DNA of 55,152 bases, counting the filler, from Sluysia triapertura (Eukaryota): NCBI GenBank assembly GCA_046118255.1. It is 4 parts of 4 records of this genome, joined end to end, with 100 filler letters (N's around TTAATTAATTAA, not from the genome) between each part and the next. Parts side by side here need not be neighbours in the genome. Positions count along the whole stretch, not along the records: positions 1 to 11,117 come from JBJNIA010188698.1; positions 11,218 to 23,151 come from JBJNIA010154825.1; positions 23,252 to 35,479 come from JBJNIA010127631.1; positions 35,580 to 55,152 come from JBJNIA010059872.1. One strand, given 5' to 3'. The notes beneath the pieces are model-generated. The model worked only from the letters and a program-made list of their open reading frames with translations, was not told the origin of the DNA and did not search any database. Made by a program: the position numbers and the translations under genes. Shown in pieces: positions 692 through 52,307 of this stretch (position 1 is its first letter; every line of letters starts with the position of its first letter).

Positions 692-1063
692 TCATTTGAA
701 TTTCGCATATAAATTTCCAATTATTAAACTAAATAATTTACCACTATTCTCAGTTGATACTAAAGACGACTTCATTAGGATATCAAATGTTTGACAAATA
801 GAACCATATTGTGTTCCACACAACCTTTTAATTTCATTTAACTTTAACTTTATTGTTATACAATCATCATTATAAGTACTGTTGATTTGATAACGAATTT
901 TATTGGTTGTTGATAATATTTTGTAATGTATATTCATCCCTGTGTAAGGTACATAGTGAGGCTGTGCAGAACAATCTTGGAAATGTCTACAAAAATGAAT
1001 TACGTGCCAATTTTCTGTATTAATTTCAAACGGAAGAATAAATTGCACTTTAGCATACTTCAT
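692..1063 (-). pseudogene. Module-1 cargo gene, unknown protein, probably frameshifted; weak Cys/His finger-like segment
   Basis: 123-aa ORF starting about 90 bp from the module-1 CCAAT hairpin. An upstream frame (LYQRNDNIQLVPPPKK) joins via a shift in the T7 run at 1081-1087. FCRHFQDCSAQ followed by SLCTLH in a shifted frame is loosely CCCH-like. Confidence 0.4.
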
Positions 1064-1152
1064 ATCAATATGACTTTCGGTTTTTTTGGAGGAGGAACTA
1101 ATTGAATATTATCATTTCGTTGATATAAAACTGTTCTACTTGAATTTACTGC

Positions 1153-1220
1153 TGATTGGTTATCCAACCAAATCGTGTAAATGATGTTTATATACACGCG
1201 ATTTTGGTTGGATAATCAAT
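1153..1220 (-). promoter_or_regulatory. CCAAT (NF-Y-type) box embedded in an inverted repeat (hairpin 1)
   Basis: Minus strand reads AACCAATCAG. Arms ATTGGTTATCCAACCAAA (1155-1172) and TTTGGTTGGATAATCAAT (1203-1220) have one mismatch. Confidence 0.6.
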
Positions 1221-1251
1221 ATAATTATTACAACAGAATGATTGTGATGAG

Positions 1252-1312
1252 CCATCATCAGTACTGACACAAATCTATTTACAGTAATGAGCAATGTCAG
1301 TGGTGGTGATGG
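1252..1312. ncRNA. Hairpin 2 of module 1 (pre-miRNA-shaped or DNA cruciform)
   Basis: CCATCATCAGTACTGACA (1252-1269) pairs with TGTCAGTGGTGGTGATGG (1295-1312), with two G-U pairs on the + strand and one mismatch. Confidence 0.4.
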
Positions 1313-3519
1313 TAATACAGTGTTTATTTTGATTAAAATTTAATGTTAATGATAATACAAAGATAAAAATAATAATTATAATAATAGCAACAATATGTTA
1401 TTATTATTACCATTATTACAAAAATGCATAAATTCCTTGTAAATCTTCAAAATTCTGTTTTTCATTTTCTTCAATACCTCTTAACATATTTTGAACCAAA
1501 TAAAGTAAAGAATGATAGAATTGAGTATAATAACAACAAAATGTTTTTAAAAATGCATAATTTCTTGTTCATTAAAATTGAACACGAGCTTGCTTTAAAT
1601 TATTTAAATTTCTAACATATTCTAATAAATTTATATGTATTTAAACTAAAGATCCTTAAGTAAAGGTTGTTTTGAATGGGTTTTACGTATATACTTGACG
1701 TTTTATGATATGATAACAGTTCTTTTGTTATGCAGTAAAATGTAGAATGTCAGAGTGAATTTCTAGATAATAACTAATGTTTTTGACTTAAAGCGACATT
1801 TGAACATTGGAATATTATGAGTAAAAGATACATTGAGAAGAGTGTGGTTTAGTGAGTGTGAAAAAGATAAACTACAGCATAACTCTCAGTATATTTGAAA
1901 GGTTATTGTGCCATGTTAACAACGTGATTAGCTCTCTTGCTGCTTTTTAAGTGGTATTATGTTTTGTGCTATTAAGGATTATGTGATAATAATTGATGAC
2001 TTTGAAAGGTTGTAATTGATTCGAAGATGTCGAGTGGATAATTTCGAATGTGATTAAGGTTTGATTGTTATGAATGTAGAGTAACATGTTTTAATTGGAT
2101 CTGTTGATGTAAATTGATGGTATTGTGTATGAATGTGGTTTGTATAATTATGAGATAGTGAATATGACTTAATTTTGGCAGATAAACTGTTTTAGTGAGT
2201 GATGAGAAAATATATATGTGAATGTTAAAGTGTTCAAAAATTAATTTTTAATAAATTTTAGTAGTTGTGAAGGTTGACCACCACACTTACGATGTCAGAT
2301 TTACTCATTTAAGGGCTAACACGTAAGTGGCATGTAAAAATTAAGGTTATTAATAAATGTTTAGCTATTCGGAGCTCAATATACGAAAAAGATTTATTTC
2401 ATGAAATTGGAAATAGTGTCAGAGATTCATTTTTCGTCTTTATTGCTGTGACGATTTAAATAATAATTTTACATAAGATCCGATTAAAAAGGATCTATAA
2501 ACAAAGTTAGCATTTGATTTGGTTATATAACGTGGATTTAAAATTAGATAATAAAGCTAAAGTTGGTCTACTTAGAATTCATTTGGTAAGCGATAGAATA
2601 CAATAGTCAATAAACATAAACAACTAATTTCAATAGTCAATACATAAATAAATATAAACAACGAAATTCTATTAATTTTATTTACAAATGTTATTTTAAA
2701 TTATTTTTTGTTAATACATTTACAAAATGATTTACAAATAAATTAATTTATTTATTAATTAATTTATTATTATTTTTCCTTTACAAATGTACCAGTATTA
2801 AAAAATAAATCAAGTTACAGATAGTTGTATAAATTTCGTGAATTATAAATAAATCATAACATGACAACCGTGACAGTTATAATCATTATGATAAATTTCG
2901 AATTTATTATTTTGAATTAGACGATAGTTTGTTTGTCAAAAACTCATCACAGGATCATTAATAGATAATGGCAAGACGAAAATTCGACAAAAATTAATGT
3001 TCACTTTTGAGTATTAAAAATGATCGGCATAATAAGCATGCATTATCGGCATGCACAATAATAAAGTGGAATTCTCGACTTAGGAATTATCTAAATATGT
3101 AATTTGTGTGAATAAAGAAAAGCTGAATAAGTGAAAATGGACAATGTAAAGTTTCGTAAAATGTAAGTTATTTTAGGTTTTGGTTATAACGAATAGTTAT
3201 TGATATAATTGGAATAAATTATTTACTTGACAAATGATAAAGTTTGCTGCGAAGTTTTCACTTATTTATGTTTTTGGTTTGTGACAGTGGAGGGTATACT
3301 ATTTAAATACACAAAATAGTAAAGACTTCAACAGGAATTTCATCTTTAAGATACCATTACGTTAAATGTTTATTAAGTTTGCTTCAACAACTTACATTAT
3401 AAATTAATTCAAGTCTCTTTACGTTATATATATTCAGTCGATTAATTCTGTTAAACTCATGATTCTTGACCTGACGTATGCAGGTGATATTTTACTTATT
3501 AATTGCATTACCTTCATTC

Positions 3520-4260
3520 CTTAATTTTCTTATTTCTTCTAACACGATTTTTACATGATTCTTGATTCAGCACTTTTGAAAACTTCATCACACAACATTA
3601 CATTCGATTTTATAAACCTAATATACACAGATTCTATTTATCAAAACCCGAGCATAAACCCTTAACATTACATAATCTGTACATCTTTAACATCTTAATA
3701 TTACACAACCACTGCATTCCAAAAACTTATACAACCCAACAGTCAACAAAGTAACCCCATTAACAACACAAAATTCAACTACGTAAAATACATAATATTT
3801 CAAAAGGTATGTTTAAGATCAAACATGATTGAGTTTATAAACTGACACTTTAAAAGTGATAAAAATGAAATTATTTTGTTATTTACATTTTAAATACGAA
3901 TTAATTACTACACTTAAAATTATTAAGTCATTTTCATAAATATATGAAATACATTTTCGATTACTTCTTAGATAACAAAAACATTAGACTTATTTCAAAA
4001 GTTTTACTTAAAACAAATGAGTCACATTCAAACTTAATCCACTCGACTTAACATGTCTTTGCTAACATCATCATCATTATACCATCCAACAGATTTAAGT
4101 TTAAATTCTAAATATACTCACCAATTACTTACAATTTTTAAGTCACAAAATTAATTCTTATTCGAATATGAAAATGACGAATTGCAGCACTTACTTGATC
4201 TAATACTTTACCATTTCGAGTTTTAACAATCATTTCATATATGACTTATTAACTTTATCG
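3520..4260 (-). repeat. Truncated inverted copy of the module body (C/A-rich on + strand)
   Basis: TCACATTCAAACTTAATCCACTCGAC (4022-4047) matches the reverse complement of GTCGAGTGGATAATTTCGAATGTGA in module 1 (about 2029-2053); the strand skew is mirrored. Boundaries approximate. Confidence 0.6.
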
Positions 4261-4692: not shown

Positions 4693-5202
4693 TTAGTTTG
4701 TGTGAGTCATGACTTCTTGAGTAAAATAAGCAGGATTACCAGATTCGAACATATCTTCTAGATCTTCATTTGTTATACTTCGTTTGGCAATGTCCATTTG
4801 CTTATTAATTCTATCTCTACAAATATCTCGATAAGGAACTGAAACAGCCATAACTTCGATGAAGTTTCTTGATATAGTCGCATACTGGGTTTTTCTTACT
4901 CGCAAATCCCACGACGATTTATAGGAAGCTTCATATTGTTCAATGCTTTGTTCAATATTTTTTAATTTTTCTTTGTTTCTACAATTACTTCGACTTGAGT
5001 TCTTTTTTGTTTTGATGAGGAGAAGATGGAATACCACTATGTTTATTTTTAACATCTTCTACCACATTCTTATCTGCTCAAACTCTCTTCGCATCTCTTC
5101 CATCTGAGTAAGAAAGCTCAATCATCTACCGCTGTCGATCCAAATTAATGGAATTACCTTGCATGCTGTTTTCATTTTCAATATATAATCAGGTAGATCC
5201 AT
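4693..5202 (-). pseudogene. STX1: Syntaxin-1-like pseudogene (Habc domain and linker), frameshifted, no introns seen, SNARE/TM part missing
   Basis: Pieces in different frames: [34 protein letters not shown] and [40 protein letters not shown]...[21 protein letters not shown]. These match the recalled syntaxin-1 motifs [31 protein letters not shown] and EELEDMLESGNPAIF. Confidence 0.9.
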
Positions 5203-8200
5203 AAATCTATAAAAACGATATAAAAGCGATTTACAAGAAAAAATTTTATAAATTTTTAAACTTCTGTATTAAAACAAATTTTTTCTTTGTTAATAACAGA
5301 TATAATGAAATAAAAATAATAAAATTCTTCATAGTTTTTCTGGAACTTTACTTCTATTGCACTTAATTCTTGAAGGTCTTAAAACCATATTGGTTATAAA
5401 AACTAAGTTTCTGACATAACTTCGATTAAATTATATAATGAATAGTTGATGTCAGAATCACAATCAAATACTGCTGTACTGCAGAAAGATATTATATACA
5501 TGTTTACAGTTTGTGAAGTTAAAAAGAATTTACAACAAATAATAATTATGACGCTAATAGTGATCGTAAGAAAAGGGACTGTGATGTTGAAATAGAATAA
5601 GACTAATATTATCATAATTAATTATTATAATATTAATATGAGTGATTTATAATTTGCGTTAAAAACAGTGAGGTGATAATGTATAAAATAGGTTCTATTT
5701 TATGGCAATAAAATCACTCACTCAATTTGAAAAAATTTTGGAAAAACATAAAAATAATGTCATATAGTTTCAAAATAAAATGTATTTATAAAAAAATTGT
5801 AATAATAATAAAATAATGAGTGTTATTACTAATTAAAAAGAAAAACGTCATTATTATTAATTAAAATTCGAATGTTAATTTAAAAATTCATTCGAGATTA
5901 ATATTTGATTCATAATTTCAATTATTTAAATCATGATTGTGTAAATAGTAATGTATTAGTCTAGGTAAGCCTACATTGTGATTAATTAAATTTTGTTGAA
6001 TTCTGATTAAATGCATAAATAATAATTAATAATGATTATTAAATACTAAATTGTGCAATAATATGAATTAAATTAAATTTTGTTATAAAAATATTATTAA
6101 ATTATTTACAATCACTATATAACATATATTTTGCAGTACAATAATACTGTAGATCTGTTATAGTGTTCCTGAAGATATAATACAGTTCCACTAAAGACAA
6201 TACAGTTTAAATTAAAGATGCAGTACAATAAAGTCAGGTCTATTAAAATATAATAAACTACACAATTCAACCATCAGAATAAATCTTAATCTTAAGCTAA
6301 GATTTTAAATAGAATAACCTTTAAGTCGTATTGTCTGAAAATATTAATATCACTGGTCATAAACGAAGGTTCAGTACAAATTGAAACACAAATGAAATTA
6401 GTGTAACCATAACAAATAATACTAACAATAGAAACGAAATAAACATTCAAAAAATGTCAATATATATCTATCAACATTCAATAATAATATATAACAATGC
6501 AGGACCAATATTAAACACTTAGAAAATAAATTTCAACAATCTTTTAATTCACATTTTAGTGCAATAAAACATTTCTTTATAGAATCGTGAATTAATCGAA
6601 ACAATATGTAACTTTACCTTAGTGTTTTTCCTAACCTTACAAAGTAAAGCAAACTTACAAGTGAGTCCACTAACGTAGTAGGATTACCGTTTAGGGCTAG
6701 CCTTTGGATTTTTAAGTCAAATTGAAATTTAATATGGAGGTTGTCAACTAAAATTTAATGTGGAAATTAAATATATATATTTTAAAATTTTATGAAATTA
6801 ATTCAGGTTAGTTATTGAGATTTTTCGTAAATCATATGAAAAGGATTTGTTTTAATTGATTTTACGAATCGGAATGAAATTCTGATAAAGCTTCAATGCT
6901 CAGGCGATTTTATAGTTTTAAAGCTATACTATTTATATTCAAAGAACTCAAAATGTTAAATTAATTATATTACAAAAATTGGTTAAATGTTGTGTTACAA
7001 AAGTTTAATAATACAATTACAAGGATAATTGTTAGTTTGCATAATTAACTAATCGTTAATCTATTAAAAGAATATTTCCAATAAGATTTTTCGCCAGAAC
7101 CACTAAAAGGTTCCAAATATTAATAAAAAATGAATTTACGTGGATTTTTAGTTTGATACTTATGAGTATCTAAATCTTACAGAAATAAACTATCGTTTTA
7201 CAAATAATTAAATTTTTCTTTAAATGAATCCTAATCTTCGATTGTGAGGAGAATATACTACTGTATTTTTTATTGACAAGCGAACAGAAATTTTACTGTA
7301 TTTGGTTTGAAACTTTAGGTGTATTTTATAAATTTTGTTGTGAGAGAATGCAGATTTTATGTCTATTTATAGGTATTTTTGTTGACATTGAATATTTTTA
7401 AACAAATATTTGATTTTTTGAAATTTTAGTATTTTCAAAAATAATACTTAATTTAATATGTACAAATTTAATTACTTACATCGTAATTTTATCCAAATAT
7501 TATCCAAATATAAAACAAATATAAATTGTCTAATAATAAAAAATCAATAAAGTTTTAGCAAGTCATTATAAATCAGTTGTACGTTTTATCAAATCAGTAG
7601 TGTGTAAAGCATTAGTGTGTCTAAAACAAAATCAATCATTGTTTACAATTTCAATTAAAATATCAGAAAAAATGTCAATCGATATATAAAAAGCTCTGAG
7701 TGAAAATTTACTGAAATATTAAGTATAGTTTTTGATAGAAATATAACAATTTATATGAGATATAAAATGAGAACTTTCCACAAAGACACAAAGAAACAAA
7801 GAAACAAAAATAATTATTCGATTTGATTTTGAATTACTCAAATTTGATTTAACTATTTCACAGTTGACACGATGGAAAAGGCAACCAGCTTCTATATTAG
7901 AAATGAGACAGACAATAAAATATTCGTAAAGAAATGTTTATCTTAACAGTAGCACAAAGAATTTAACAGTGATTACAACAATGACAACAATATTAAATAA
8001 AACAAAAAACAACAATAATAATGACGATAATTTACTAAAATGGGAATATGTTTAAGGGTTTAGACACTTTACGAATCGTTGTGCGAATATTCAAATTGAA
8101 ATTATCATTTTAGACGAATGACGGATGTTTGAGGTTTATCAATTAAGATTAATGAGATTTAAAGAATAGAATTATAATAAGAATTGTAATACACAGTGAA

Positions 8201-8859
8201 AATATTATTGAAGTGAACTGCAGATCAAGCACACTAATCATAAATATACTACACAAACAGAAACAATCTTCACGTGGCATAACAACACAAATCAAACATA
8301 TCTTTATCAATAACAGCCATAATAATGATAACAATATGCGTTGCAATATCGACACAAACGTAAACTAAAATTTAACTTTATCGTTACAATATTGTTGTCA
8401 AAATTGTCATTATTTGGTTGTTTTATCGTATTTCGCCTATTCTCTTATTATCTCTTATCGAGCTTGGTATCCATGGACTCAATTTGTAAATTGTCATTAA
8501 CTAGTACACCTTGTATATTCAATAATATTAATTCAATCTTAAATAATTTAAATTTATGCATTTCAACGTCTCTGACATATCGTTGAGAGATTAGTTCTGT
8601 AAAATAATGAATATCGAAAGATAATAATATTGAATTATAAAAGGTGTCACTGTTACATAAAAATAGGAAGTTTGCATATTTAATAATTTCATTTAATAAA
8701 ACTTAATCATATATTATATATATTAAGTTGATGGAAAGGTTGAACCACCACATTATCATATTTTATGCGAACATGCAGTGATTCTAGAAGAGCCTGAGTT
8801 GAATCTGAATGATTTTGATCTTATCTTAAATTGCCTCAATTTAAAACTATAAAGATATA

Positions 8860-11793: not shown

Positions 11794-12225
11794 TTAACTT
11801 AAATGGCAAGAAAAAATAAATAGAATTAATATTTACAAACCGAAAAATGGGAAAAACCAAAAAAATTATCATCAATGTTATTTTCAAAAAAAATAGTGCA
11901 TGTGGGCTACATTTTCGTTTATCGTCTCATTGGTTTGCCAGTTGATTTCTTACCCATTTCGTTGCCTCCATCGCTTCGATGTTGGCATTTTTTACCGGCT
12001 CTTTTGGATTCTTGATTTTCATTGATTCTTGAACCATTTCAACAACCTGATTTTATATGAAAACTAGTATTTCCTAATTCATATTCTGCAGAACTTGTAT
12101 TTATTAATTTTTAAATATTTTTATCCTGAATCTCCAAATAGTCCTCCAATAATCGAAAATGTTGAATTAATAAATTACTTTTACTTTAGAATTTTGACTT
12201 TTTGAGCTTTCTATCAGTAAGTGTA

Positions 12226-15526: not shown

Positions 15527-15588
<62 letters not shown>

Positions 15589-15909: not shown

Positions 15910-17144
15910 TAGTACAAATTCTCTGTGGATAACATGGTATCATCGATGGATCCGAACAACATTATGTACTAGAGTGTGGCTTCCACTACCGCTAGAATTG
16001 CTTTATATTCTTTGAGATTTTAATAAGAGAGTCCATTATATATGAATAAAAATTGATTTGTCTTATGCGATTCAAAATGCGATTGATTTCCTTCCTGATT
16101 TTGGCTAATTGAATTTACGATATCTGAAAATAAATAAAGTTAAATAATAAGAATAAAATACTTGCATTCCATAGTGTGAAAAGCCCATAAAATATTGTAA
16201 ATACTGTTATAAAGGATTTAAAATAAACCCATTTTAAATAAAATTAATTTACAATACCTAAAATATATAAAAATTCACTTTATTAAATATCTAAATATTA
16301 ACTTTACAATAGAATCCGTTTCACGGAGATCATCGAAGTTGTGTTGGATTTTATAATCTTCATCGTCACGATATTGTGTGAAGTTGTGATGATATTCATT
16401 GTATTGTTTAAGAAAATTTTTGACACTATTACTCTCTTTGATGTTGTCATCATAATCATTGTCTTTATCACGTTCGCCATACTCATTGTTGTCTTCAACA
16501 TGTTTGGGGTAGTTGTGACCATCTTTAACCTTATATTTGTCGTCTTGATAGTAATCATCACTGTTGACATAGTTTCTAACTTTAAAACTAATGTTTTTGT
16601 AATCATCGTTATCATATCTTTTAACTTTAAGATCAAAGAATTTATAATCATCATTGTCATATCTTTTAACAAAAAAATCAAAGTATTTATAATCATCGTT
16701 ATCACATCCTTTAACTGAATGATTCTGAATGAAATCGTTACTCACTTCGCAATAGCTTACGCAATTATTATCATTTTTGAAATGGTCGAAAGAATAGCCA
16801 TCATTTACATCATGATTTTTATTGACCTTGTAACTGTTAACAGTTTCGCCATTACTTGCTTGATATTTGAAATGATTGTTATTAATTCTATCTTTAACAT
16901 ACTTGAAATAGTTGTGATAGTCTCTAGAACTAAAAGAAAACTCGTTATTGTTACAAACTTAAAAACTGTCATATTGACTTTTACCGTAGAGGTTAGCATC
17001 TTCAATTTCATAATAATAAATATTGTAAGTGATGACTTTGCTAATATATTCTTTACCATCCTTGTTGTTTTTATAACAGTGTTTAACATCAACTTCATCC
17101 TCGTAAACATAGTTATCATAATACAGTGCCTTGTGATATAACAT
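15910..17144 (-). pseudogene. Module-2 cargo gene: D/N/Y/K-rich repeat protein, paralogue of the module-4 cargo, with short 3' introns
   Basis: ORFs 16959-17144 and 16275-16745 are in the same frame and separated only by one TAA (16959-61); the interval translates open. The 14-aa repeat KRYDNDDYKYFDxxV is shared with 45078-45662. Short GT..AG introns follow, and a last exon starts near 16124 (DIVNSISQNQEGNQSHFESHKT) and contains stops. Confidence 0.65.
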
Positions 17145-17299: not shown

Positions 17300-17539
17300 G
17301 ATTGGATTGGCTGTCCAACAAAAAATGATTTTGAGATTTTTAATACTACTACTAATTTGATTGAACAGCCAATAATCTATTAATCAACTGTGATGACTAC
17401 CATCATCAACAGTGACATAAAATTATAGTTGTATAGCAAAAATGTCGCTGTTGATGATGGCAGTAACTCAGTTGATTGAGAACTGCTTAATTACATTTTT
17501 ATTTCGATCAATTTATGTTAAAAATGATGATAATAACAG

Positions 17540-17598
<59 letters not shown>

Positions 17599-17787
17599 CA
17601 TTAATCAAGAAAATTGAATAAAGTCTTTGTTTAGTTCTTTAACATAACCTTTTCTTTGATTTTCTTGATTTTCTGCACATATTTTGAATAATATAAGCTT
17701 AGAATCTTTAATTTACTTCTTTTGAATTAGTTCGATGCTAAGAGAATAGAATTGATAAATTATATAAAAATTAATATTAGAATGTTG

Positions 17788-17834
<47 letters not shown>

Positions 17835-18615
17835 TGTTATTATTATTATTGTTGTTGTTGTTGTTGTAGATAAACGCATAAAATCTTTGAATGCTTGCAA
17901 GATCTTACTTTTATCTTTATATATCGCCATCTAAATTGTAGAAATGAAGAGAACTTTCGGCTTCGTGAATTTATAGGGGTGAAGCTTTTCTTTGTGATTT
18001 TACGTACTTCTTTTGCTGTTTTAAGTAATTTTGTATGATTGTTTCTGATATTTTAACTGAAATAATTTTTTGGCTGAAATGTTATTGAAGTGCAGGTAAT
18101 TATGAACTAAATACTTGGAATAATGTAGACGTTAAAGTGAGTGATATGGTGTTGGGCTATTAAGATTAAGTAGTATCGAACGTAGATTTATGGTGTTTAA
18201 TTTATTGTGGAAGTATTTGTTGATTGATTATGAATATGGATGTGATTAAATTGTTTGAGATGAAAGGATGTAAAGATAAAGATATTTTGAATGAATTTTT
18301 AGTGTGTTTTGATAGTTTAAGTTGTGAGGATAAATGTTCTTAATGTGAATTGATGGTATATTTTATTAAGAATTGATAGACTTTAGGTGTTTTGAAAAGT
18401 GAAAATTTGTTTTTGTAGATTTGAGAGAAATAAGATATAAAAATAATTGTGATGAATTTTACAAGGTTGTGGTATATTGTTAAAGGATATAATTTTGGTT
18501 ATGATGCATTAGTTTTCACAAGATTTTTTAAAAAAATATGTAATGTATATTTTAAAGATTTGTGAAATTTTGATATGTTTAAGGTGAGATTTTAGTTATT
18601 AAGTTGGCCACCACA
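17300..18615 (+). repeat. Dispersed module copy 2 (microsatellite/box segment duplicated)
   Basis: Hairpin 1 at 17306-17373, hairpin 2 at 17382-17477, (TAT)n at 17545-17600 and (TAA)n/(TTG)n at 17789-17866, AAACGCATAAA at 17872, G/T body, end AGTTGGCCACCACA at 18602-18615. Confidence 0.85.
17382..17477. ncRNA. Hairpin 2 of module 2, pri-miRNA-like geometry
   Basis: Upper stem CTACCATCATCAACAGTGACAT (17397-17418) / ATGTCGCTGTTGATGATGGCAG (17442-17463), plus lower stem AATCAACTG / CAGTTGATT. Confidence 0.45.
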
Positions 18616-19682
18616 CAGGTATTAATAAAATAAGAAAAATAATCTCAAAAGTGAATACGAATAGACGCAAGCAAATACGAACTAGCAAGTCTGATATAAA
18701 TATGAAAATGAATATGAAAAATAATACATTGAAAATATATTACCAAAATCATATGTACTTTTATAAAGAGACAACTGGCTACACAACCACAGTATAAAAC
18801 AGAATTTGTGGAATTGAATTGGTTAGAAAGGATAATAATAATTATAGAGAAGCAGATTATTGTAAAGATGATGCAATAGAATTTAAAGGAGGAAAACAAT
18901 AAAAATAAAAGACCGCTATTCAGTGCCTTACCAGAACTTGAACTGACTTCGATGAAATTATTGAAAAGGAAGATATAGTTATTATAACATTTTTAACGGA
19001 ATATTGAAATAATTATATTCGAAAAATGACTATTAACAGTAATAATTAATGAAAAATGAGATAAGTAAATTTTCTAAAATAATTCACTAGATCATGATAA
19101 ATTATTAACACGTGATAATCTCAAATTTTATTATTGTTAATGTTATTTATGTGATTAACAACATATGTTATACAATATGAATTATTGAAAGTTAGATATT
19201 TCGATATATTCAACTTTATCGAAAGTAACAAATACAGTTTTCTAATTTTACAACATGTATCATTTAATATAAAATGTCACATTATAGGAAAAGAGAAAGA
19301 GAAAATACGGACTGTAGTGTCGCAACTATACACATCATTTTTGTTGTTAAACACACCCATTAATAAACATAAACATAAGTATAAATATAATTCACTTCAT
19401 CCATCTCATAACATGATCATATTTTACTCGACTTATAAATTAATTTATTTATAAATTAATTATTGTTGTTCTTGTTTGTTGTGGTCGTAAGGTGTTTATA
19501 AAATTTAAAATTATTGTCTTCATTAATACAAAATTTACAATAAATCTTTTATTTGCAATTTTATAAACATTTACTTTAAAATAAAAATTCAAATCTTGAT
19601 TCAAAAATTTTAAATTAAAAATGTCAAAATTAAATACACTAAAAGTTTTATTTAATATAAAATTTTCTAATTTAGGATTATG

Positions 19683-21126
19683 TCATAAATATCTAATATC
19701 TTTATTGTCTGATGTCCTTACTTCCCTACCTAAAGTAAAAACAATAGTTATGTTATCACTATAATAAAAATAAATAAAATTTACATTTATAAAGTCACTA
19801 AGGTTGGCATTATTCGACTGAACAGGAGCGCTAACCGATCGCATTAAACTTGTGAGTCTGGAAAAATGGTCCAAGTTATCTTGATGTAAATATGGATCCG
19901 TCATTTGACCAATAGTGTGAACATGTAGACAATTTCTTGGAGAAATCGCTTCCATAAGGACATAATACTATTCCAATACGCCGATTAGAAATTGGTATAC
20001 GTTTGATTGTATTATAATAGAGGTACATTTGACTAGGAGAATTACTTTCCGATTGCGCGTTACGTTCGCATGATTTGTAGTAAGAACTGTGAGAAAGATT
20101 CTCGTTTTTCACTTTACTTTTTGATATATCATAATTTTGTGACATTGATTGGCAATGTTTTGTATTGATTATAGACTTAAATATCATCCTTTATCTCTTC
20201 CATAGTGTTGACAAGAATTAGAGATTGAAACTATACTCATCATCACTGATTATAATAGATTGCACATTCTTAGACTCATAATCAATATTAAGATCTTTGA
20301 ACGCGTAAGTGGAACTCTTGCTCAAATACAAGTCAACTAAATTTAACAAATCTATTAGAATATTCAATTGTAGCTTACCAAAACATCTATTTTACAAATT
20401 TGACTGTGCTAATATCTCATATCTATATTTGCAAGAGAATAATGACTTATCGTACCATGGGCATGATAATTGTTAGTTTCAACTCCAAATCTAAAAGATT
20501 TGTGTTCATCAAAATCCATCCGCTTTATTTCTTGACTGGACCTAATTTATGTTTGTTTTTACATGAGACTACATAACCAACACCACAATTGGTTTCTATT
20601 CTATATTCATGGTGTTTAAATGCTATTATGAAACCATGAAACTTTTCTTCGATCTTGTATTTTTATTCACTATTTCTGTACTTTTCGATCACACTGTTCT
20701 GTGTCTGAGTAACACATATTTGAAGTTTTTATTTTTACATTGGTACCTTATTATTTTACATTCTGTTTCTTTTTTAGCAATTACATTAGTCTGGCGTTTA
20801 GTACAAGTAAAAATATTGTTATGTTCAGTACTGACATGATGATGATCTTTTTTAATTGTTTGTAAAGGAAGTATATACTTTAAATTCTTTTTATCAACAG
20901 CTTTATGATTAATGACATGATCATATTCGGAAATTGAATTTAATAGCTTTATTTCAAATGTATTTATCTCGTTATCGTTTAAAATTAATATATCTTCACT
21001 AATAAGTTCGCATTGAAAATTTTGAGTCATTACTTTAAATTCATCATGGAAATTTTTAGTAATAACTTTTTGAAAATTCATTATCTTTTTTGTGTTGTCA
21101 CATAAAAATTTTGAGAGTATTATCAC
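19683..21126 (-). pseudogene. Module-3 cargo gene: decayed protein with two CCCH-type zinc-finger remnants
   Basis: Chain of broken ORFs (20689-21126, 19876-20187, 19683-19955). Finger 1 is CPWYDKSLFSCKYRY..(shift)RY*HSQI at 20406-20463. Finger 2 is LCPYGSD..(shift)RNCLHVHTIGQMTDPY at about 19890-19965. Confidence 0.6.
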
Positions 21127-21189: not shown

Positions 21190-22580
21190 TGGATTGGTTG
21201 TCCAACCAGAGATATAAAAATAATAAGGAGAATCACTTTGGTTGGACAACCAGTAATAATCGCCAAAACAATTTAAGTGACAGTTGAAGCTACTATCATT
21301 GTTGATGAGAATTTATACATGGTGACCAAAAATGTACAAATAAAATTTAAAAATTAAAAATGATAAATATAAAATGATAATAATAATAATAATAATTTAA
21401 TGTTATTATTATTATTAAAACTGCATAAATTCTTTCTTTGTCTTGAAAAATATGATCTTACTTTTGATTCTTTTCTTTCTCAACATGTTCAACTTATATA
21501 AACAGACGAGCCTTAAAGAATTGTGAGTTCATGATGTTTCAGCTAAATGTTATTTAATTTGGATAAGGTTTTAAGGTGTAATAGTGATGCTAACGTTTTA
21601 AGATAATGCGTAAAGCGTTTAAATATAAATTTAACTGCTGCTTTCCGGTTTTAAGTGAAGATAAATTTAGGTTTTCGTTATTTTGAAGTAATGTAAATGT
21701 TTTATGTGGATATTAAAATACATCTTGATGTTTTGAAATGAAATAATGTTTTTGGCTGAAGATGAACTTGAGTATTAAAAGGTAATCATTTAAATATCTT
21801 GAAATAGTATAAATATTTAAAATGGATTTTAAATGTACATTGGTTTTTTGCATGAAAGTAATGTTTAGCTCTTCGGAGGTGTGACTTAAAATGCATTAGG
21901 AAGAGTATAGTTTAATGAATGAAAAGAAGATAGCTTTTAGTATGTTCAAAAAGATGATTGTTCTGTGTTGAAAATATGATTTATTTTCTTGCTATTTGTT
22001 AGGTGATCTTGCCTTTTGTGATGTTAGGCATTAAATGATAACAGATCATGAATTTAGGATACATGAATTGATTTGGGAGTATCTGGTAGTTGATTTCGAA
22101 TGTGGTTGTGGTTGGATTGTTATGACATGACGAATCAAATATTTTTGATGAATTTTTTAATGTAATTTGATGGTTTTGAATGTCGTTGTGGTTTGTATGT
22201 TATGAGATTGTAGATTTAAAATGTTTTGAAAAATGAGAGTTGATTTTGGTGGATCTGCAAAGGAATAAGATATAGGAACAGTTTTGACGAATTCTACAAG
22301 GTAGTTGTGTGTTGTTGAAAAGGATAGGATTTTGGTTATTTTTGTATTGAACTGCGAATTTAAAAATGTGAGTTGTAGGTTTTGTGAGTAAGTGTTATAT
22401 TGAAACATATGATTTTGATTATGTTGACATAGGGTTGTGTAAAAAAAGTTTTTAATAAATTTTTGAAAATGTATATTGTATATTTTGAAGGTGTGTGGTT
22501 TTATAATTTTTTGAAAGAAAATTTTTAATAAAATTTGTTGATACCGATATGTGGTTTCAATGAAAAAGCCTACTATCACA
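21190..22580 (+). repeat. Dispersed module copy 3 (hairpin 2 mostly deleted, terminus degenerate)
   Basis: Hairpin 1 ATTGGTTGTCCAACCAGAG (21193-21211) / CTTTGGTTGGACAACCAGT (21236-21254); (TAA)n; AAACTGCATAAATT at 21418; GATCTTACTTTT at 21454. The body aligns by eye to copies 2 and 4. Confidence 0.85.
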
Positions 22581-22671: not shown

Positions 22672-22741
22672 CAGCGATGGCGAACCTTTTTGACAAGTGG
22701 GTCACTTGAAATCGTTGCGTGGGTCATAGGTTCGCCATCAC
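22672..22741. mobile_element. 70-bp hAT (Buster-type) mini-element with two facing TIRs
   Basis: CAGCGATGGCGAACCT ... AGGTTCGCCATCAC, with internal GTGGGTCA twice; no 8-bp TSD visible. Confidence 0.7.
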
Positions 22742-42363: not shown

Positions 42364-42641
42364 TCAGGTGTGCCAGAGACCTTCTTATTCTCTTAATTTA
42401 ATGTTACATGTGCAGAACCAACATGGTTTCAGGAGTGCCAGAGGCCTTCTTATTCTCTTAATTTAATGTTACATGTGCAGAACCAACATGGTTTCAGGAG
42501 TGGAATTTGAACTTAAATTCATCTCACTGACAGTTATATGAGGACTTCAGGTCCAAGAATTGGAATTCAGGTTTCAGGAGTGGAATTTGAACTTAAATTC
42601 ATCTCACTGACAGTTATATGAGGACTTCAGGTTCAAGAATT
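42364..42641. repeat. Two overlapping tandem duplications (65-bp unit x2, 80-bp unit x about 2)
   Basis: TCAGG recurs at 42364, 42429 and 42494; GGTTTCAGGAGTGGAATTTG at 42490 and 42570. Confidence 0.92.
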
Positions 42642-44423: not shown

Positions 44424-44736
44424 ACTTATCTATTCACACTTTTAGTTTCACTTCTAACATCTTACCACTTACAATTAATTTTGTCTCGTTTTTGGTTGTG
44501 GTTGAAAATTTATATTATGCGTATTTAAATTAACTTGCTGGTGAAATTTACGAAATATGCTATATAAACTAATTAAAGGATTATCTTTTTCTTTTGCCTT
44601 ATAATTATGAATGATTCTTTTATTTTTTAGTATTAAAAGAATATAACATCCAAGAAAAGATTTATTATTTACACATATATTTAAACAAATGTTTTCATAA
44701 TGTCCTTGAAGGCGAAAAACCTAGTCTTGCATACGA

Positions 44737-45674
44737 TTACGGGAAGGCCATATTCTTTACCTCTCGTTCATTACAGTTCTTTTTATTTTCTGTGCTTGTA
44801 GTATTCCATACCAATGGGTCTTTCAATAGTTGAGTTATTCTAGAAGATTGCCATTTATGCTTTTGTCTTGAGTATTCCTGAGGTTCCAGTTCATATGTAA
44901 TATGTGCGTAGCGCCAAGGACTCCGTTTTTGATACATAGACCATATTTGTCTGTATAGTATGGACACATCGCAGTAAAATTCATTTTATACTCATTATAT
45001 TTGTAGAAATGATTACTGGTATATTCAACTTTAATAGTATCGATACTTTTGTTTAAAGAATCACTGTCTTTATAGTATTATCCACTCTTGTAATAACCTT
45101 TATCTATAACGTTAATATTTCTGTTATCATCATAATCGTCAATATAACTTTTAACTTTAAGATCAAAGTATTTATAATCAACATTATCAAATCTTTTAAC
45201 TAAAAAATCAAAGTATTTATAATCATCGTTATGATATCTTTTAGCTAAAAATTCAAAGTATTTATAATCAATATTATCATATCTTTTAACTTTAAGATTT
45301 ACATCGTTGTTATAAAATTTAACTTTAAGATAATCATGATTGTTAAGGGTTTTAGCTTTGAGATAATTATCAATGTGATGACTTTTAACTTTAAGATCAT
45401 CATAGTTGTCATGACTTTTAATTTTAAGATCATGATCATAGTTATGAGTTTCGACTTTCAAATCATCATGATTGTGATGACCTTTAGCTTTAAGATCATC
45501 ATCGTTGTTATGACTTTTAGCATTAAGATGATCATCATAGTTATGAGATTTTACTATAATATTAGCGTCATTGTTATGAGTTTTCACTTTAGGATCAACG
45601 TCGTTGTTATAAAATTTGACTTTAAGATCATTATCGTTGATACAACTTTTAAAAGAGTTCATATCTAAACTTCG
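44737..45674 (-). pseudogene. Module-4 cargo gene: N-terminal 11-aa/14-aa tandem repeats plus C-terminal CCCH finger, frameshifted
   Basis: ORF 45078-45662 carries K(S/T)HNxDDxLKV repeats (33 bp), then KRYDNxDYKYFxxxx repeats (42 bp). A splice acceptor TTTTAACTTACTTGTAG lies in frame just upstream. The finger reads TAMCPYYTDKYGLC (shift) YQKRSPWRYAHITYEL at about 44888-44975. Confidence 0.65.
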
Positions 45675-45787
45675 CTACAAGTAAGTTAAAATATAATTGT
45701 GTAAGAAAAATTCTTTTCTATTTTTACATAGCTGTTACTAATAATAAATTTTTTTGAAAAAAAAACAATGTGTGCATATCATGACCA

Positions 45788-46827
45788 TTGATTGGTCATC
45801 CAACCAGAGGAATTGAGATAAAAGCTACAGTTATTTTGCTCTGATTAGATGACCAGTAAAAATAAAGAATACAGTTAATAGTGAATGTACTGATTTAGAG
45901 ATGAACCACCATTCATGATGACATTCATTTGTACATAAAGATTATTTATGTCAGTATGAATGGTGGTAATTTGTTCATTTATGTATTTAATTAAAATAAT
46001 TAAAATTAAAATGTTAATGATAATAATAATAATAACATTTAAAATAGTGATAATAATAATAATAACAAAATATTATTATTATCATTATAAACGCATAAAC
46101 TTCTTTATCTTTATTAAACATGATCTTACTTTCATCTTTACTTTTGCTGAACATATTGGAATTTAAAATGAAGAAACACGATCTGTTGTTATATGTATGG
46201 TTTTTCTTATTAATTTATTAATCTTATGATACCTCAGTTTAATGTTCTAGATGAATTGATGTTTCTGTCTGAAAATGTTATTAAAACGTATATGATTTTG
46301 ACGTAATTATTTTGAAGTAGTGCAAGTGTTGAGAAGAGTGAAGAATGTTAACTGGTGTTTTGAAAGAAAGTCATGTTTGCTTGTTGGAACTTAATAATAA
46401 ACGATCGTACATTTAGAATATTTGGGTTTTTTGAAGTAATATCGAATGTAATTATGATTGAATTGTTAAGAATGAAAAATAAAATGTTTTGAATGATTTT
46501 TGCTTTAGTTTAATGGTTTGAAATGTAATTGTGATTTGAATGTTATGAGATGTCGAATTGTTCAATGGTACTCCTTGTTATGAGATTGTAGGTTTAAAAT
46601 ATCTTGAAAAGTGAATGTTTATTTTGATAGATGTGAAGCGAAATGAGGTATAAAAGCGATTGAGATGAATTTCGCAAAATTGTTATATGTTGTTAAAAAG
46701 CTTTATTTTAGATATGATAGATTAGTTTTAAATAGGTTTAAAATATATAAAATGTATTTGGAAGTTTATGCTTTTATATGTTTGAATTTTTGTAGATTTG
46801 ATTAAGATTGGTGAGTTAGCCACCACA
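45788..46827 (+). repeat. Dispersed module copy 4
   Basis: Hairpin 1 at 45791-45857, hairpin 2 at 45901-45978, (TAA)n, AAACGCATAAA at 46089, GATCTTACTTT at 46122, G/T body, end GTTAGCCACCACA at 46815-46827. Confidence 0.88.
45901..45978. ncRNA. Hairpin 2 of module 4
   Basis: ACCACCATTCATGATGACAT (45905-45924) / ATGTCAGTATGAATGGTGGT (45948-45967), with a possible lower stem ATGAA / TTCAT. Confidence 0.45.
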
Positions 46828-47774
46828 TCGTTTATTTTAACATTACTGAAGATTATAAATTCTTTGATATTCAAATATTTATTTCCAAATTATTTTATTA
46901 TTAGTTTTTTTGCCCACTGAATAGTATTTTCTTTGCTATTGATTTAAATGAGGTACATATATGCAGCAATTTTATTACCACTCACACTCTAAACACAGTC
47001 TACAATCTTATTCTGATTATATCTAATACATATCTCAAAACCCGTAATAAAATCATTAAAATGTAAATTGCATCAATTAATTTCATTAATATCAATATTG
47101 TTTTTCCCAGCATCGTCTCCTTCATTCACATCAACACCATTCCGTAGAGCATCTTTAAACTTTTTGTGTTACATGCTCTTTAAAGATGCATTACAAGAAG
47201 TGTCTATAAATAAAATGAATCATGTACAGGAAAATGTATTTCGGAATTTGATTAAGTAAATAAGATGGGAATGAATCATGTAAGTAATATTGTTACTCAT
47301 TTACCACAAAAAAGATGTGGATCAATAATCAGCTTAGAAATATATGCTTATTTGGACTAAAGCTCGTGAAAATCTCTGCAGTGTAGATAATTTACCAAAC
47401 CAATTTTCTAGCCATTATCATGATGACAATGACGAATCTAGTGAAGATTCAAGTAATGATCATAACAACAATAATGAGAAGAAAATAAAACATCAATAAC
47501 AAAGCAATCGAAACGAAAAACTTAATCCCTTAAAAATTCTAATCAAAATTCTAAAAAGAATCACAAAAATTAGCAGCCAATAAAAAAAACGTCCCAAAAG
47601 CGCTAATCAACAAATAAAAAGTTCTCCAAGACTAAAAAATAATTACTATAATTAAAAACAGAATGTTTAATTTTAAATATTTATAAATTTAACCTTGTTT
47701 TTGTATTAAATAAAGTAATGAAAGGCATTTTTTGAAAAATCTGCTTATTAGAATTTTTGTTCATATAATTTAAG

Positions 47775-47982
47775 ATGCTTTGTAAAATGTGAAAACAATA
47801 GCGGCTCTGTTTTATTTCTTACTTATGATATATCACATGTTGATTGGGTTATTCAATATGATGTGCCAAAATATTATGATGATTATGTTCATAAAGTTGG
47901 GCGTACAGCCAGAGCTGAGAAATCTGATATTTCAGTACTTTTTATTTGTTTCACACAGAAACATGAAGGAATAATCCAATAA
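47775..47982 (+). pseudogene. DEAD-box RNA helicase C-terminal fragment (motif V-VI region)
   Basis: SVLFLTYDISHVDWVIQYDVPKYYDDYVHKVGRTARAEK. Motif VI HRxGRTAR is recognisable; motif V (DVAARGL) is missing. Confidence 0.85.
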
Positions 47983-48895
47983 TCCAATGTAATTTTGACG
48001 ATTTCTTTCCCAAGAAGTAGATGTTCCGATTTTATGGATTTTGAATTTTGTGGTATTGCAAAAAGTATTGTTCCTTTAAACATTTAAGTCGTATGGTTTA
48101 TGTAGAATGGATACGATCTGTTATTTGTATAATTTAATAACTAAGATAGGTTATATTTATGGACTTCAAGCTGATGATTTTATTAATTGTTTTTATGGCT
48201 GTCTTGAAATAATAACTTGGGTTATTGCAAAAAGCAGAAATGATTATTATTTTTAGGATTTCAAATTAAATTAGATAATCATACTGACACTGCTTTTGTC
48301 GAAAAGATGGATTAACAATAATTGTTGAAGATAGTAAATTCTATCAGCTTGATTTGTTTCTTAATCAATTATTATTTCAACCATACCAAATGAAAGAGAG
48401 TTACAGATTATTATTCACAATAAACATGTCAATCTTGATTGTAATACGAACTATCAACGCATCCGGTATCTTTGATTTTAAGTCTTTATCAAAAGATGTA
48501 GCTACTACTCATTTTAATTTCTATTTTGACAGAGGATTTTTGTATGTAGTTTTCTAGTTCAATAAATGCGAACAGCTTTTATGATTTTTTAACCGTAATG
48601 ACTTTAAGCCTTGAGCCGAATTGTAATTTAAAAAATTTTAAATTTTGTGATAAATAGGCGAACCTTAAGTCCCATTTAGCTTTGACTTAACTACTTGTAG
48701 CAATGAAGAAATTAAATCGGACCTTAAGTCCATATTTAATAACGAGTTTTTCGAAATTAAATTATTTATTATGATCTTAGTTCATAAATTAACTATAATC
48801 CGACCATTAGAGCTTGAAATATCATTGATATATTATCAACAATAAAGGACTAAGTATTTTACACACTTTAATAAGTCATATTATTTTATTTTTTA

Positions 48896-49550
48896 TGTGT
48901 GATTCAAACCGTTTTATTGCATTTTTCGGCGACCATGGAGTAATTTATCATGATAATATCTAATAATATTATGAAAATAACATTGTGCATAGAATTATGG
49001 CTATTTTTGTTATTGAAAAATATTCAAAACCATTAACTCATATTAAATTTTATTTAAAACATTTTAACCCATAATTCATAACATCAGAATTAGAATTACA
49101 TTTAAAACCTTCAATCTACATTTTATATCATCAATCTTTCAATTTCCAAACTTTACTTTACATTTTAAATTCCATTAAAAACATTTTAAATTCATGGTTT
49201 TATTTCATTTCAGAATGGGTATCAAAATATTTGTTCAGAAGAAGCATTTTAAAAAAAGACAGATGGTGTAAAGTATTCAAAAGATGAAATTCATGTATTT
49301 TAATTTTTATATTATTATTATTAATCATTTTTATTATTATTTTCATTATTATTATTGTTAATATTAGTGCTTTTAATTATATTATTATTTTTGATTTACA
49401 CAGTGACTAATTTTGTTCTTTGGTGTGTCATCGATTTGACAGTTAATTAAACTTAATTCAACATACCATGTTGACTGTCTATCAATGGCAAATAGTTGCT
49501 GGTTAATTGAATGAGGGAATTAATTTTGTCTGAGTGGACATCCAATCAGA
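48896..49550 (-). repeat. Dispersed module copy 5, inverted and shortened
   Basis: GGACATCCAATCAG at 49536-49549; hairpin TGTCATCGATTTGACAGTTAA (49426-49446) / TTGACTGTCTATCAATGGCA (49471-49490); TTA tracts; TCAAAATATTTGTTCAG near 49222; C/A-rich body. The left boundary is tentative. Confidence 0.7.
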
Positions 49551-49629
49551 AGCCAAGAAAAGAAAATTATTTGTTTGTAAAACACAAGATTTAAAAATAA
49601 GCATAATTAATTTTACAATTCGCAGTTAA

Positions 49630-50640
49630 TGTTAAAAAATTAAAAAAATAAGTTAAACAATTTTCGATGCTTACATTAAGTGAATTTGTTGGTTCACAAT
49701 ATTATTATGATAATTTTATTTTAACATTTCATAATAAAAAATATTTAGTACTCCATTGTATATGTCATACAAATATATTGATAGAAATATGTTATTCGAC
49801 TTTAGTAAAAAAGATAACTTAAAGATTGATTATGTGATGTATTCTGTTAACGACAAGCAAATAAAAGATGGTAGATCAGAAGATGAATGATATTTATCAC
49901 AATATTTTTAAAGATCAGAATAATCATCTAATAAATACAAAATTTTTTAAGTCAAAGTTAACTACAGATGTAGGATTGATTGTAAGTAGTTTGTTTCATG
50001 ATTTATTAGATGTGCTAAAATTAATAAAATCTGTTAGATTAGCCGAAGTACAAAATATTAGTACAAGAAGTTGAAGAGAACAATTTCATGCACGTCAATT
50101 TAAAGAATCCATTATGATTATTGAAAATAATAAAAAGGTTATACTATCAAGTTTAAATCATGTTTATTCTTTGAAATATAAATTGACAAAACGAGATAAA
50201 AGTATTCTTAGATTAATTATAACAATTAATGATCAAGTTGTAGAAATTTCTATTAATATATGTTTAGCTTTTTACAAATTAGTTATTACAAATATAGTAA
50301 ATGTCGATTTATGTAACATCAATAGTGAAGGACATGTCCAAAGTAAAAAACAAGAACTGTCTGTTCAAAATTCTTCTATAGAAGCAGCCAATCTTTCTAT
50401 ATAAATTCACAGATTTACGCTAATGAACACAAATACTAAAAGAAAGCTATTTGCATTTATGGAACTACGAAGACTGCCGAATGTTCCTGATATGGCAAAA
50501 AATGCAAAGACTGTCATCGAATTCATGAAATTAGCGATGTCCTTAATCCTCATTGAACTTCAGTAATCACTATGACAGAATCAATTCTATATTATCAAGT
50601 TTGGCAGTCACATCATTTGATCCGGTGATCCAGAAAGATT
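49630..50640 (+). pseudogene. Module-5 cargo gene: decayed protein with C-terminal CCCH finger
   Basis: Broken ORFs 49868-50074 and 50114-50404, then HKY*KKAICIYGTTKTAECS*YGKKCKDCHRIHEISDVLNPH at 50428-50553 in one frame. Confidence 0.65.
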
Positions 50641-52307
50641 TAAAAGTAAATTTTGCAATTTAATTTAATTTTGTATAAATCATTTATGCATTTGTATTTT
50701 TTAGAACTACAATCATAACTGCGTCCAGGCATACTCAATAAATGTCTAAACTGTATTCAAAAATTGCTGTTTTTTATGTAAAATTAAATAAAATAAATCA
50801 ATTTAGTCGTAATTTTTATGTTTGTCTAGAATTTAATAAATTTAAGTTAATCTTAGTAATAAGAATCGTAATAAATTATAATTATAATGTTGATTTTGTA
50901 TTCTCTCTAACTAAATAAATTAATATTGTTAACCAAGTTTTCCATCTCGCATAATCATCAATTAGAATATAATACAAATAGAAATAACAACCTATTACCA
51001 CAAATGAATCTTTTTCTGTTGATGGTAACTGTGCAGTATTTACTTTCTACCGATACTGTATTTTTTCACTTTTATTCTATATTTAATTCTTTTATATTAT
51101 ATAACAAATTTTGTTTTATAGTTAATATTATATAAATGATTCTAATAAATAATGGTGAAAATATGACCAATTTCATCCGCATAAAAAATAATTTTGATCT
51201 TTAATATAATTCACTTATACATTTAAAGATATCACTTAGTAGTTAAGTGCTTATATGTATTACATGGTGTTTATTCGTTTCTATTTTAGTGGCTTTTCCT
51301 TTGTTCTTCCGATGCTACGTTTAATGTGTATACTTTTTTACTTGATATTTAAATTTTGTGAGTTTCAGTTTGTATTATTCATAATATTTTTGTTTAATTT
51401 TTGATTGTTAAAATGTTCCGGATCTTTTTTCACAATTACCCTAGGTGAACTTATTAAAATTTTATTTTAAATTCATTGCGATATTTTTTGGAAGTATATT
51501 ATTGTAATTCACTATAAAATTGTAAAATTTTACTAATATTACAATTTATTGAATTTTAAACAAACTTTTAACGCATAACTTAAACGGAACTTTATAGAAA
51601 ATGTATATGTCTATTTTAGTATTTTATCAGTTGTTGCTTTTATTAGTTTAATTCTTTGAGGGTTCGAAATTTTATTATATTGATTTGCGCTTACATCTAT
51701 AAATAATCTAGAAAAGTTAAGATAGTTAATAGTTTTAAAAAATTCATAGTAATTCATGTGAATCGATCCTTGTAATTTTTTATTGATTAAATTTTTTATT
51801 CTAAATTTACTTTCTAGTTTGAATAAGTAAAATATAAAAATTAATCTAGATAAGCGAATTATAAATAGAAAGTTAATTTTAGAAAAACTCATTAATTATT
51901 TTTGAAAAAATATGAAAAGAAGCTGTATATTTTAATTAATTTTTTTATTGCTTTGTATATTAATTTTATATTAAAGTTTTAAGTAATTAAGAATAATTCA
52001 AATTAGTGAAATTCAATTTATATTTGGTTTGAAAATAAAAATTTCAGAAAAATATTAAAACGTTATAATAATTATGAAACAGTAATATAAAAATAATTCA
52101 ATGTATGAAAATATTGTAAATACATTTATACTATAAACAATAAAGTAATAGAAAAAAAAATAAATTAAATATATTGTTTAACTTATCTTTTAAATATAAA
52201 ACTTGAAATCTATGCGTATTTATACTTATATTTGAATTTTTAAACAATAAACGCAAATATATTATCAATTTTCAAAGCAATTTTTAATAAATAAATAAAT
52301 ACATATT

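Follow-up and report, generated by a model that had tools for sequence, protein, structure and literature searches.

The stretch of Sluysia triapertura DNA analysed here ('the window', 55,152 nucleotides of assembly GCA_046118255.1) consists of four AT-rich contigs (approximately 25% GC) joined by spacers of N, and harbors, on three of the four, five occurrences of an arrangement in which a long non-coding 'module' or 'arm' lies beside a broken gene, its 'cargo'. One module together with its adjacent cargo is termed an element; elements, modules (m1 to m5) and cargos are numbered alike. The window contains eukaryotic gene fragments (a syntaxin, Pfam E 1.9e-10; a helicase C-terminal domain; and Rad1) and, on its sequence, reads as animal genome DNA. 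The elements comprise the following features.

692..1063, minus strand: cargo 1, a 123-codon open reading frame (ORF) interrupted further downstream; no family matched, and its far end lies off the start of the contig or was not found
1153..2285, plus strand: module m1, with hairpin 1 (1153-1222), hairpin 2 (1251-1313), a (TAA)n tract, a box at 1422 and a G-rich body
2278-2285: terminus of m1, CCACCACA
16258..17144, minus strand: cargo 2, a broken homologue of cargo 4 that contains DYKYFD-type repeats; no finger or far end seen
16258-16307: predicted intron-like GT..AG segment of cargo 2 (50 nt)
17304..18615, plus strand: module m2, with both hairpins, two microsatellite blocks and a box at 17872
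18608-18615: terminus of m2, CCACCACA
19480..19485, plus strand: candidate far end of element 3, an inward TGTGGT; an abutting repeat hides the depth boundary
19730..21081, minus strand: cargo 3, a broken orphan gene with a partial CCCH-like remnant at 19917-19962 (by eye)
19730-19784: predicted intron-like GT..AG segment of cargo 3 (55 nt)
21191..22580, plus strand: module m3, with hairpin 1 only, a box at 21419, the top summed depth in its body and a degenerate end, CTATCACA
44497..44502, plus strand: candidate far end of element 4, an inward TGTGGT within the bin where depth rises; a joint of 44484 to 46842 brackets the element
44838..45662, minus strand: cargo 4, a 194-codon repeat ORF and, past one stop, a broken Unkempt-type CCCH finger at 44902-44966
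45789..46827, plus strand: module m4, with both hairpins, a box at 46089 and terminus CCACCACA at 46820-46827
48898: TGTGAT, a doubtful candidate terminus of m5
49022..49548, minus strand: module m5, partial and inverted, with a palindromic head (49531-49548), a microsatellite and a short G-rich body (49025-49190)
49667..50704, plus strand: cargo 5, a broken orphan gene with a C-x9-C-x6-C-x3-H finger and internal stop at 50452-50517 (by eye)
50646-50704: predicted intron-like GT..AG segment of cargo 5 (59 nt)
50997..51002, minus strand: candidate far end of element 5, TGTGGT, within the bin where depth falls

The original prediction described five copies of one module on three contigs, all sharing the same order of hairpins and box. 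Judged by alignment, m1 to m4 are true homologues, spread over the three contigs, and m5 is a partial relative; the common order is found in m1, m2 and m4, whereas m3 and m5 lack hairpin 2. The head motif GATTGG[ACT][CT][AG]TCCA occurs exactly five times in the window, once per module. The bodies of m1 to m4 are 70-77% identical over 197-540 columns, and all six of their pairings exceed local shuffles (z 4.0-18.4), as do five of the six head pairs. A profile search of the modules, proposed earlier and carried out within the window with leave-one-out nhmmer profiles, recovered each of these four (best E 1.7e-24 for m1, 1.3e-29 for m2, 6.4e-58 for m3 and 1.8e-25 for m4; the range quoted for the four is E 7e-22 to 6e-58), but reached m5 only at E 0.0036. 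The hairpin-1 covariance model is similarly weak on m5 (E 0.69), which also lies outside the top matches of the box matrix; on the arm matrix its head reaches 18.8 bits, and three shuffles at most 14.9, one tile of its body aligns (z 4.9), and the skew at 49025-49190 is family-like (G 0.18, C 0.01). Its body departs from the family at 49022, where 16 contigs from a public run (X1) have loose ends and continue differently.

Neither nhmmer nor the covariance models recovered additional modules at 3400-4200, 5380-5470, 8752, 30850 or 46860-47160, and in an Rfam search over the window tRNA alone reached its gathering threshold. A plant microRNA match on m4 was sub-threshold (26.5 of 65 bits) and was taken as chance. 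The possibility that the body is coding, raised by a frame that looked conserved by eye, was rejected on the lack of 3-base periodicity (p 0.26) and on the gap lengths, of which 23 in 123 are divisible by three; the test is weak in that a coding control was likewise nearly without periodicity.

The distal end of the module is sharp. As had been claimed for copies 1, 2 and 4, these share a terminal word: CCACCACA occurs four times in the window, at the ends of m1, m2 and m4 and at a site at 8745. When the ends (those of m1, m2 and m4 and the 8752 site) are anchored on that motif, mean identity is 1.0 over the last 5 nt and 0.73 over the preceding 5 nt, and beyond the end it falls to 0.17-0.40. 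Gradual fading of homology into the flanks had been named in advance as an outcome that would count against a mobile unit; homology instead stops abruptly. The distal bodies of m1 to m4 show a G-over-C skew of +0.4 to +0.9 (up to +0.88), and the cargo is little skewed.

At the opposite, gene-proximal end lie the hairpins. Hairpin 1 folds better than its shuffles in m1 to m3 (z -3.2 to -6.8; the stretch folded for m4 lacked the right arm), and hairpin 2 does so in m1, m2 and m4, the corresponding fold in m3 giving z +1.05 and the covariance model finding no hairpin 2 in m3 or m5. Both arms of hairpin 1 are 18-bp near-palindromes of the form TGRTTGG-N4-CCAMYCA, of which four sites occur with at most one mismatch against 0.01 expected by chance. 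Three positions in the spacers vary among copies, yet in each of the four copies they agree between the arms; of 24 permutations of the arm pairing, the true one ranks best. In hairpin 1, 3 of 16 pairs have changed on both sides (92% of cells paired), and in hairpin 2, 5 of 18 (96%). The covariation scores of the two were reached by 3-5 of 500 shuffles, counts that are not probabilities because they come from three or four related sequences. Non-Watson-Crick pairs on the plus strand (nine G-T, five A-C) are too few to name the pairing strand. Since the free spacers of two protein-binding sites are not expected to covary, pairing or arm-to-arm conversion is implied: the arms have changed together within copies, and it is likely that pairing was selected or that the arms were homogenised during copying.

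The gene was claimed to begin approximately 60-170 bp from the CCAAT hairpin and to point away from the module, and this is what is seen: an ATG lies 91, 161, 111, 128 and 120 bp from heads 1 to 5, respectively, facing outward. Read in the direction of the gene, the proximal arm of hairpin 1 contains RRCCAATC in four of five heads, which we take to be an NF-Y-type box. Identity drops to background directly after this CCAAT word, which is the cargo's predicted promoter.

The cargos themselves are all broken, and most are unrelated to one another, much as the original prediction of highly divergent, frame-broken genes had it; the exception is the pair formed by cargos 2 and 4 (z 18.4; at most 2.0 in the remainder of the ten pairs compared), which are 77% identical over 205 columns and thus as close as their modules. 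The further claim that the non-coding module outlasts the coding sequence therefore does not hold for this pair. Elsewhere the cargos differ in the sequence of their front part, suggesting that it was replaced and not that it decayed faster. Behind the variable fronts, a segment of cargo 4 matches the Unkempt-like CCCH finger zf-CCCH_UNK (Pfam PF25427, E 8e-5; 22.9 bits, under the curated cut-off of 31.1), although here the finger is single and broken. A C-x9-C-x6-C-x3-H pattern with an internal stop is visible by eye in cargo 5, and by eye alone a partial CCCH-like remnant in cargo 3; no such finger was seen in cargos 1 or 2. Segments of 50-59 nt bounded by GT..AG, predicted to be introns, occur in three of the four cargos examined (2, 3 and 5), in cargos 3 and 5 some 130 nt after the finger; if they are introns, their retention favours copying at the DNA level. 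Searches with the cargos yielded little: cargo 3 had no match among longer proteins (proteins near its own length were not searched), a protein atlas search was blank for cargos 1 and 3, a PDB search returned nothing credible, and none of six proteins was present in an exact look-up. For the repeat ORF of cargo 4, 12 representatives matched, and the three inspected were unrelated low-complexity repeats.

Abundance was gauged from the same public run X1, by summing contig depth across the window at 80% likeness, which gives a proxy and not a copy number. Unique parts of the window are matched exactly by X1 contigs at depth 7-18, and flank depth is 8-43; X1 is possibly the source sample. Against this, the distal bodies reach 1,738-2,092 (m2), 14,264-16,983 (m3), 12,841 (m4) and 3,675 (m5), and the cargos 444-1,048 (cargo 3), 626-1,988 (cargo 4) and 238-2,095 (cargo 5), or roughly 200-2,300 overall. 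Bins spanning the head-cargo junctions remain at 196-2,714, with no fall to the single-copy level. Arm and cargo both look amplified, and as an order of magnitude the proxy points to arm tips numbering from hundreds up to roughly a thousand and, for each type of cargo, to some tens up to roughly a hundred copies.

Beyond cargos 3 to 5 lies an inward TGTGGT (at 19480, 44497 and 51002; the first two were picked before the depth of element 4 had been seen), for which the chance of occurrence in a given 250-bp bin is 0.068 each. Depth rises (59, 328, 626) around the bin containing 44497 and drops (418, 179, 8) across the bin containing 51002. In addition, two X1 contigs join 44484 to 46842, which lie 12 and 14 nt from the predicted ends of element 4 (uniform chance approximately 3e-4 over 81 joints); the joint weakly suggests a possible empty site. 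The flanks of element 4 agree at 8 of 11 positions, as do 2.7% of random pairs, this being one of three elements tested; elements 3 and 5 agree at 3 and 4 of 11, respectively. The target-site duplication of MULE elements is 9-11 bp long. Long inverted arms at the far ends were looked for, and none were found.

It is quite possible, and tentatively preferred here, that these sequences derive, in decayed form, from a non-autonomous DNA element of 2-3 kb that carries a gene, has TGTGR ends and is moved in trans by an integrase-type enzyme. The repeated unit would pair a non-coding arm of 1.0-1.4 kb with the broken gene next to it, the two travelling together. Read gene-wise, the unit begins at TGTGGTGG and passes through a body rich in C, the (TAA)n tract and either one hairpin or two up to the CCAAT word, 91-161 bp ahead of the start codon. 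The cargo has a variable front, behind which many copies have the remnant of an Unkempt-type CCCH finger and a predicted intron-like segment, and the unit would likely close at the inward TGTGGT (TGTGG-arm-promoter-chimeric gene-CCACA). Excision or copying would take place at the DNA level, through an enzyme encoded elsewhere; the TGTNR ends, the dispersed copies with unique flanks and the retained intron-like segments all argue for such movement in trans. The front parts would probably be swapped by template switching or recombination, with new versions then amplified and left to decay, as the unrelated fronts, the finger remnants and the depth suggest. The distal arm, the most conserved and most abundant part, is what might be expected of an end-recognition region. 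The earlier suggestion of a non-autonomous gene-carrying element has thus gained partial support from a sharp shared end, high summed depth on arm and cargo, and candidate far ends. That no transposase, Rep or reverse transcriptase lies inside the copies is borne out by a Pfam scan of the 150 longest of the 196 stop-free frames overlapping the five elements, low-complexity frames having been dropped first.

A number of results weigh against this reading. The searches of element frames found no transposase or other mobilising enzyme, and protein, Pfam and PDB searches found no parent gene for any cargo front part. The likeness between the fingers of cargos 4 and 5 is modest (protein p 0.012, best of three frames, with none in DNA), and cargo 4 was without a match for the GT..AG pattern. 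The depths are sums over contigs rather than copy numbers, from a run that may be the source itself, and among the contigs listed there is no paralogous one joining a head to its own cargo. Far ends were not found for elements 1 and 2. The far-end regions are not alignable, with all ten pairs lacking homology (z at most 0.6), and the inverted repeat is only 6 bp long, features that would make a poor substrate for a two-ended transposase. The 4-bp flanks agree at one of four positions in element 3 and at three of four in elements 4 and 5, so that a target-site duplication is not shown. At element 4, the short side of the joint is only 23 letters long, unknown letters intervene and joints of its class are flagged as often false, and a flank contig that matches exactly continues unbroken through 44497.

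Other explanations account for parts of the same evidence. It is doubtful, if worth entertaining, that the arm alone is a rolling-circle element (Helitron, Helentron or HINE-like), with the hairpins acting as single-strand start and stop signals and the cargo acquired by read-through. One fixed end with variable far ends, structure kept by covariation and a distal body far deeper than the cargo would all suit such an element, and the palindromic word, its inverted partner and the microsatellite recall the DINE-1/HINE anatomy described in PMC4067079; yet the sub-terminal repeat expected at the CCACCACA end rises above background in only one of four copies, the terminal stem-loops are not significant (p 0.13-0.71), the termini are TG rather than TC..CTRR in flanks that are not TT, heads are no deeper than cargos in elements 3 to 5, and all five heads own a cargo. 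Derivation from a long terminal repeat (LTR) element is unlikely: here the TG..CA unit would be a solo LTR with an internal gene, or the arm would be the promoter part (U3) of an LTR that captured mRNAs. TG..CA ends, a tiny inverted repeat and a long, CCAAT-terminated promoter arm fit LTR anatomy. Capture of mRNA would run via template switching; LTR-mediated capture yields chimeras of several genes (PMC5131818), and planarian giant Gypsy elements hold captured domains, according to PMC6431247. No second, direct copy of the arm flanks any cargo, however, m2 and m3 being only 73% alike with single-copy DNA between them; inspection by eye shows no primer-binding site following the heads, and intron-like segments remain in three cargos. 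About as unlikely is an expanded family of CCCH-finger genes that kept its own promoter region and spread by segmental duplication, with foreign insertions into its front and no dedicated mobility. Finger remnants in at most three of five cargos, the homology of cargos 2 and 4, and a head depth that tracks cargo depth are all consistent with it, and tissue-specific promoters of planarians commonly contain CCAAT boxes and trinucleotide repeats of A/T, as reported in PMC10558129, whereas the abrupt stop at CCACCACA, the single-copy flanks, a depth that peaks at the distal tip, well away from the gene, and the breakage of every cargo speak against it.

The hairpins invite two further explanations. 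An improbable one is an animal gene-cassette system outside all named transposon superfamilies, in which a portable promoter arm bears the twin palindromes, with their matched spacers, and these would fold as a single-stranded DNA (ssDNA) site of recombination or priming at which the cargo front is swapped; the RNA-binding finger would be retained, and each new chimera would be amplified to tens or hundreds of copies. Very improbable is the last, in which the elements are integrated segments of a multipartite ssDNA virus or circle with a common region, or cassettes of a recombinase acting on the folded hairpin. A common region with a variable gene, the 18-bp near-palindromic arms of hairpin 1 (each spacer matching that of its partner arm in all four copies) and the extreme strand skew of the body (up to +0.88) are reminiscent of such systems, but the hairpin-pair pattern had no match in viral and metagenome contigs, the Pfam-scanned frames contain no Rep or recombinase, the skew is confined to the body and no circular joint was seen among 15 of the 81 joints; the virus or circle with a common region considered in the original prediction is accordingly disfavoured.

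Two loci in the window resemble the elements in part. Just upstream of a broken syntaxin gene (4693-5455, minus strand, the Pfam match noted above) lie ATTGGTTAT and a hairpin (-11.5 kcal/mol), and the CCACCACA end-like word at 8738-8752 is found 3.3 kb beyond; possibly this is a sixth, very worn cassette, which the profiles did not recover. From 46860 to 48850, an inverted C-rich repeat (depth 612) precedes a plus-strand mosaic in which fragments of a helicase C-terminal domain and of Rad1 are combined (depth 84-196); this may be another cassette with a lost head. Abutting m3, a 70-bp inverted-repeat pair overlaps a transposase-like fragment (22672-23150), presumably of hAT type as judged by eye, for which Pfam and PDB were blank. 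This fragment is near-identical in a second run, X2 (406 nt with one difference); the small share of the window found in X2 is mostly this neighbouring fragment and provides no evidence for the element. The remaining features are separate: a palindrome at the start of a contig (11260-11390), near-perfect and with arms some 60 bp long, resembling a miniature inverted-repeat transposable element (MITE) and giving a weak covariance match; a MITE-like element of 235 bp with perfect 25-bp terminal inverted repeats (12224-12458); a dispersed repeat in inverted copies of 65-80% identity (13120-13625 and 33879-34328); an intact, intronless ORF of 236 codons with the look, by eye, of PAN and C-type lectin domains, for which Pfam was blank (25254-25964); a fragment matching Pfam FWWh at E 2.1e-6 (29036-29203); a tRNA-like gene (Arg, GCG; 40136-40208), of which a 93% identical, inverted partial copy with flank lies at a contig start (35580-35669); and two adjoining tandem duplications, near-perfect and 65 and 80 bp in size (42364-42641).

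If the preferred reading of a gene-carrying DNA element moved in trans is correct, promoter-bearing chimeric genes of kilobase size, present in tens to hundreds per cargo type, would preserve, on a large and natural scale, a history of exon shuffling and of the birth and decay of new genes. What this window newly contributes is the covariation counted in the two hairpins, together with a candidate far end and a possible empty site. The literature searched, with Repbase, Dfam and supplements (which may contain the family) outside its scope, held no description of the element family, nor is the element described in the passages of PMC6431247, PMC11410931 and PMC10558129 that deal with planarian repeats or promoters.

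DNA elements that capture genes are well known from plants but thinly documented in animals, according to PMC8277862, which counts 370 Pack-TIRs across 100 genomes with a captured piece of median 224 bp. Most alike in working are the Pack-TIR and Pack-MULE elements and, among animals, Ssk-FB4 of Drosophila, which is likewise non-autonomous and multicopy, carries a gene with upstream sequence and introns, and depends on an unknown transposase in trans (PMC8277862). Ssk-FB4 is described there with terminal inverted repeats (TIRs) of about 700 bp and target-site duplications (TSDs) of 9-10 bp, whereas here a long arm stands opposite a 6-bp inverted end, the promoter-like part lies in the arm, the cargos vary by subfamily and the parent gene was not found. 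The paired long TIRs that define Pack-TIR and Pack-MULE elements are lacking, in that the first 20 nt of the far and arm ends agree at 7-13 positions and only TGTGGT is common to both. In their termini, the elements resemble Ginger1, Ginger2 and the LTR ends of Gypsy (PMC2836005): TGTGG or TGTGA is present at the arm ends of m1 to m4 and at the three candidate far ends, in agreement with the TGTNR of Ginger, and gene fragments are also carried by GingerRoot (PMC6839031). Ginger elements, however, have TIRs of 40-270 bp, 4-bp TSDs and an integrase-like transposase (PMC2836005), none of which is shown here; no TIRs of that length are present, and the flanks (TTGT/ATTG, TGGT/TCGT and TATG/AATG) show neither a CCGG/CCGT duplication nor an RTATAY target.

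DINE-1/HINE (HLE2) elements and Helitrons share with the present family a high-copy non-coding arm, a microsatellite and a palindromic word that has an inverted partner (PMC4067079), although the spacing of the arms is 31-36 bp here and thus longer than the 3-22 bp of DINE-1. The 5' TC and 3' hairpin with CTRR of Helitrons (HLE1) are replaced by TGTG ends, with no CTRR directly after hairpin 1. Comparison with the 3' repeat, stem-loop and TT target given for HINE and Helitrons in PMC4067079 and PMC11417382 found the sub-terminal repeat above background in m4 alone of four copies (12 of 17; null maximum 10-11), no significant terminal stem-loop in any of ten folds, and CT, CA, AT and TC rather than T/T as the bases past the ends of m1 to m4. 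LTR-mediated retrocopies are alike in combining a chimeric cargo with a promoter-bearing repeat and secondary amplification (PMC5131818); those, however, lie between paired LTRs, whereas here no second arm copy stands behind any cargo, intron-like segments are kept, and the TG..CA ends of a solo LTR are present only if the candidate far ends are real. A match to a known LTR, Helitron or MITE family with no preference for adjacent genes had been named at the outset as evidence against a new system; the element fails defining tests of Ginger, Pack-MULE, Helitron/HINE and paired-LTR elements and is assigned to none of the named families compared, and because its lopsided ends match no family tested, the mobilising enzyme, if found, could define a new subgroup.

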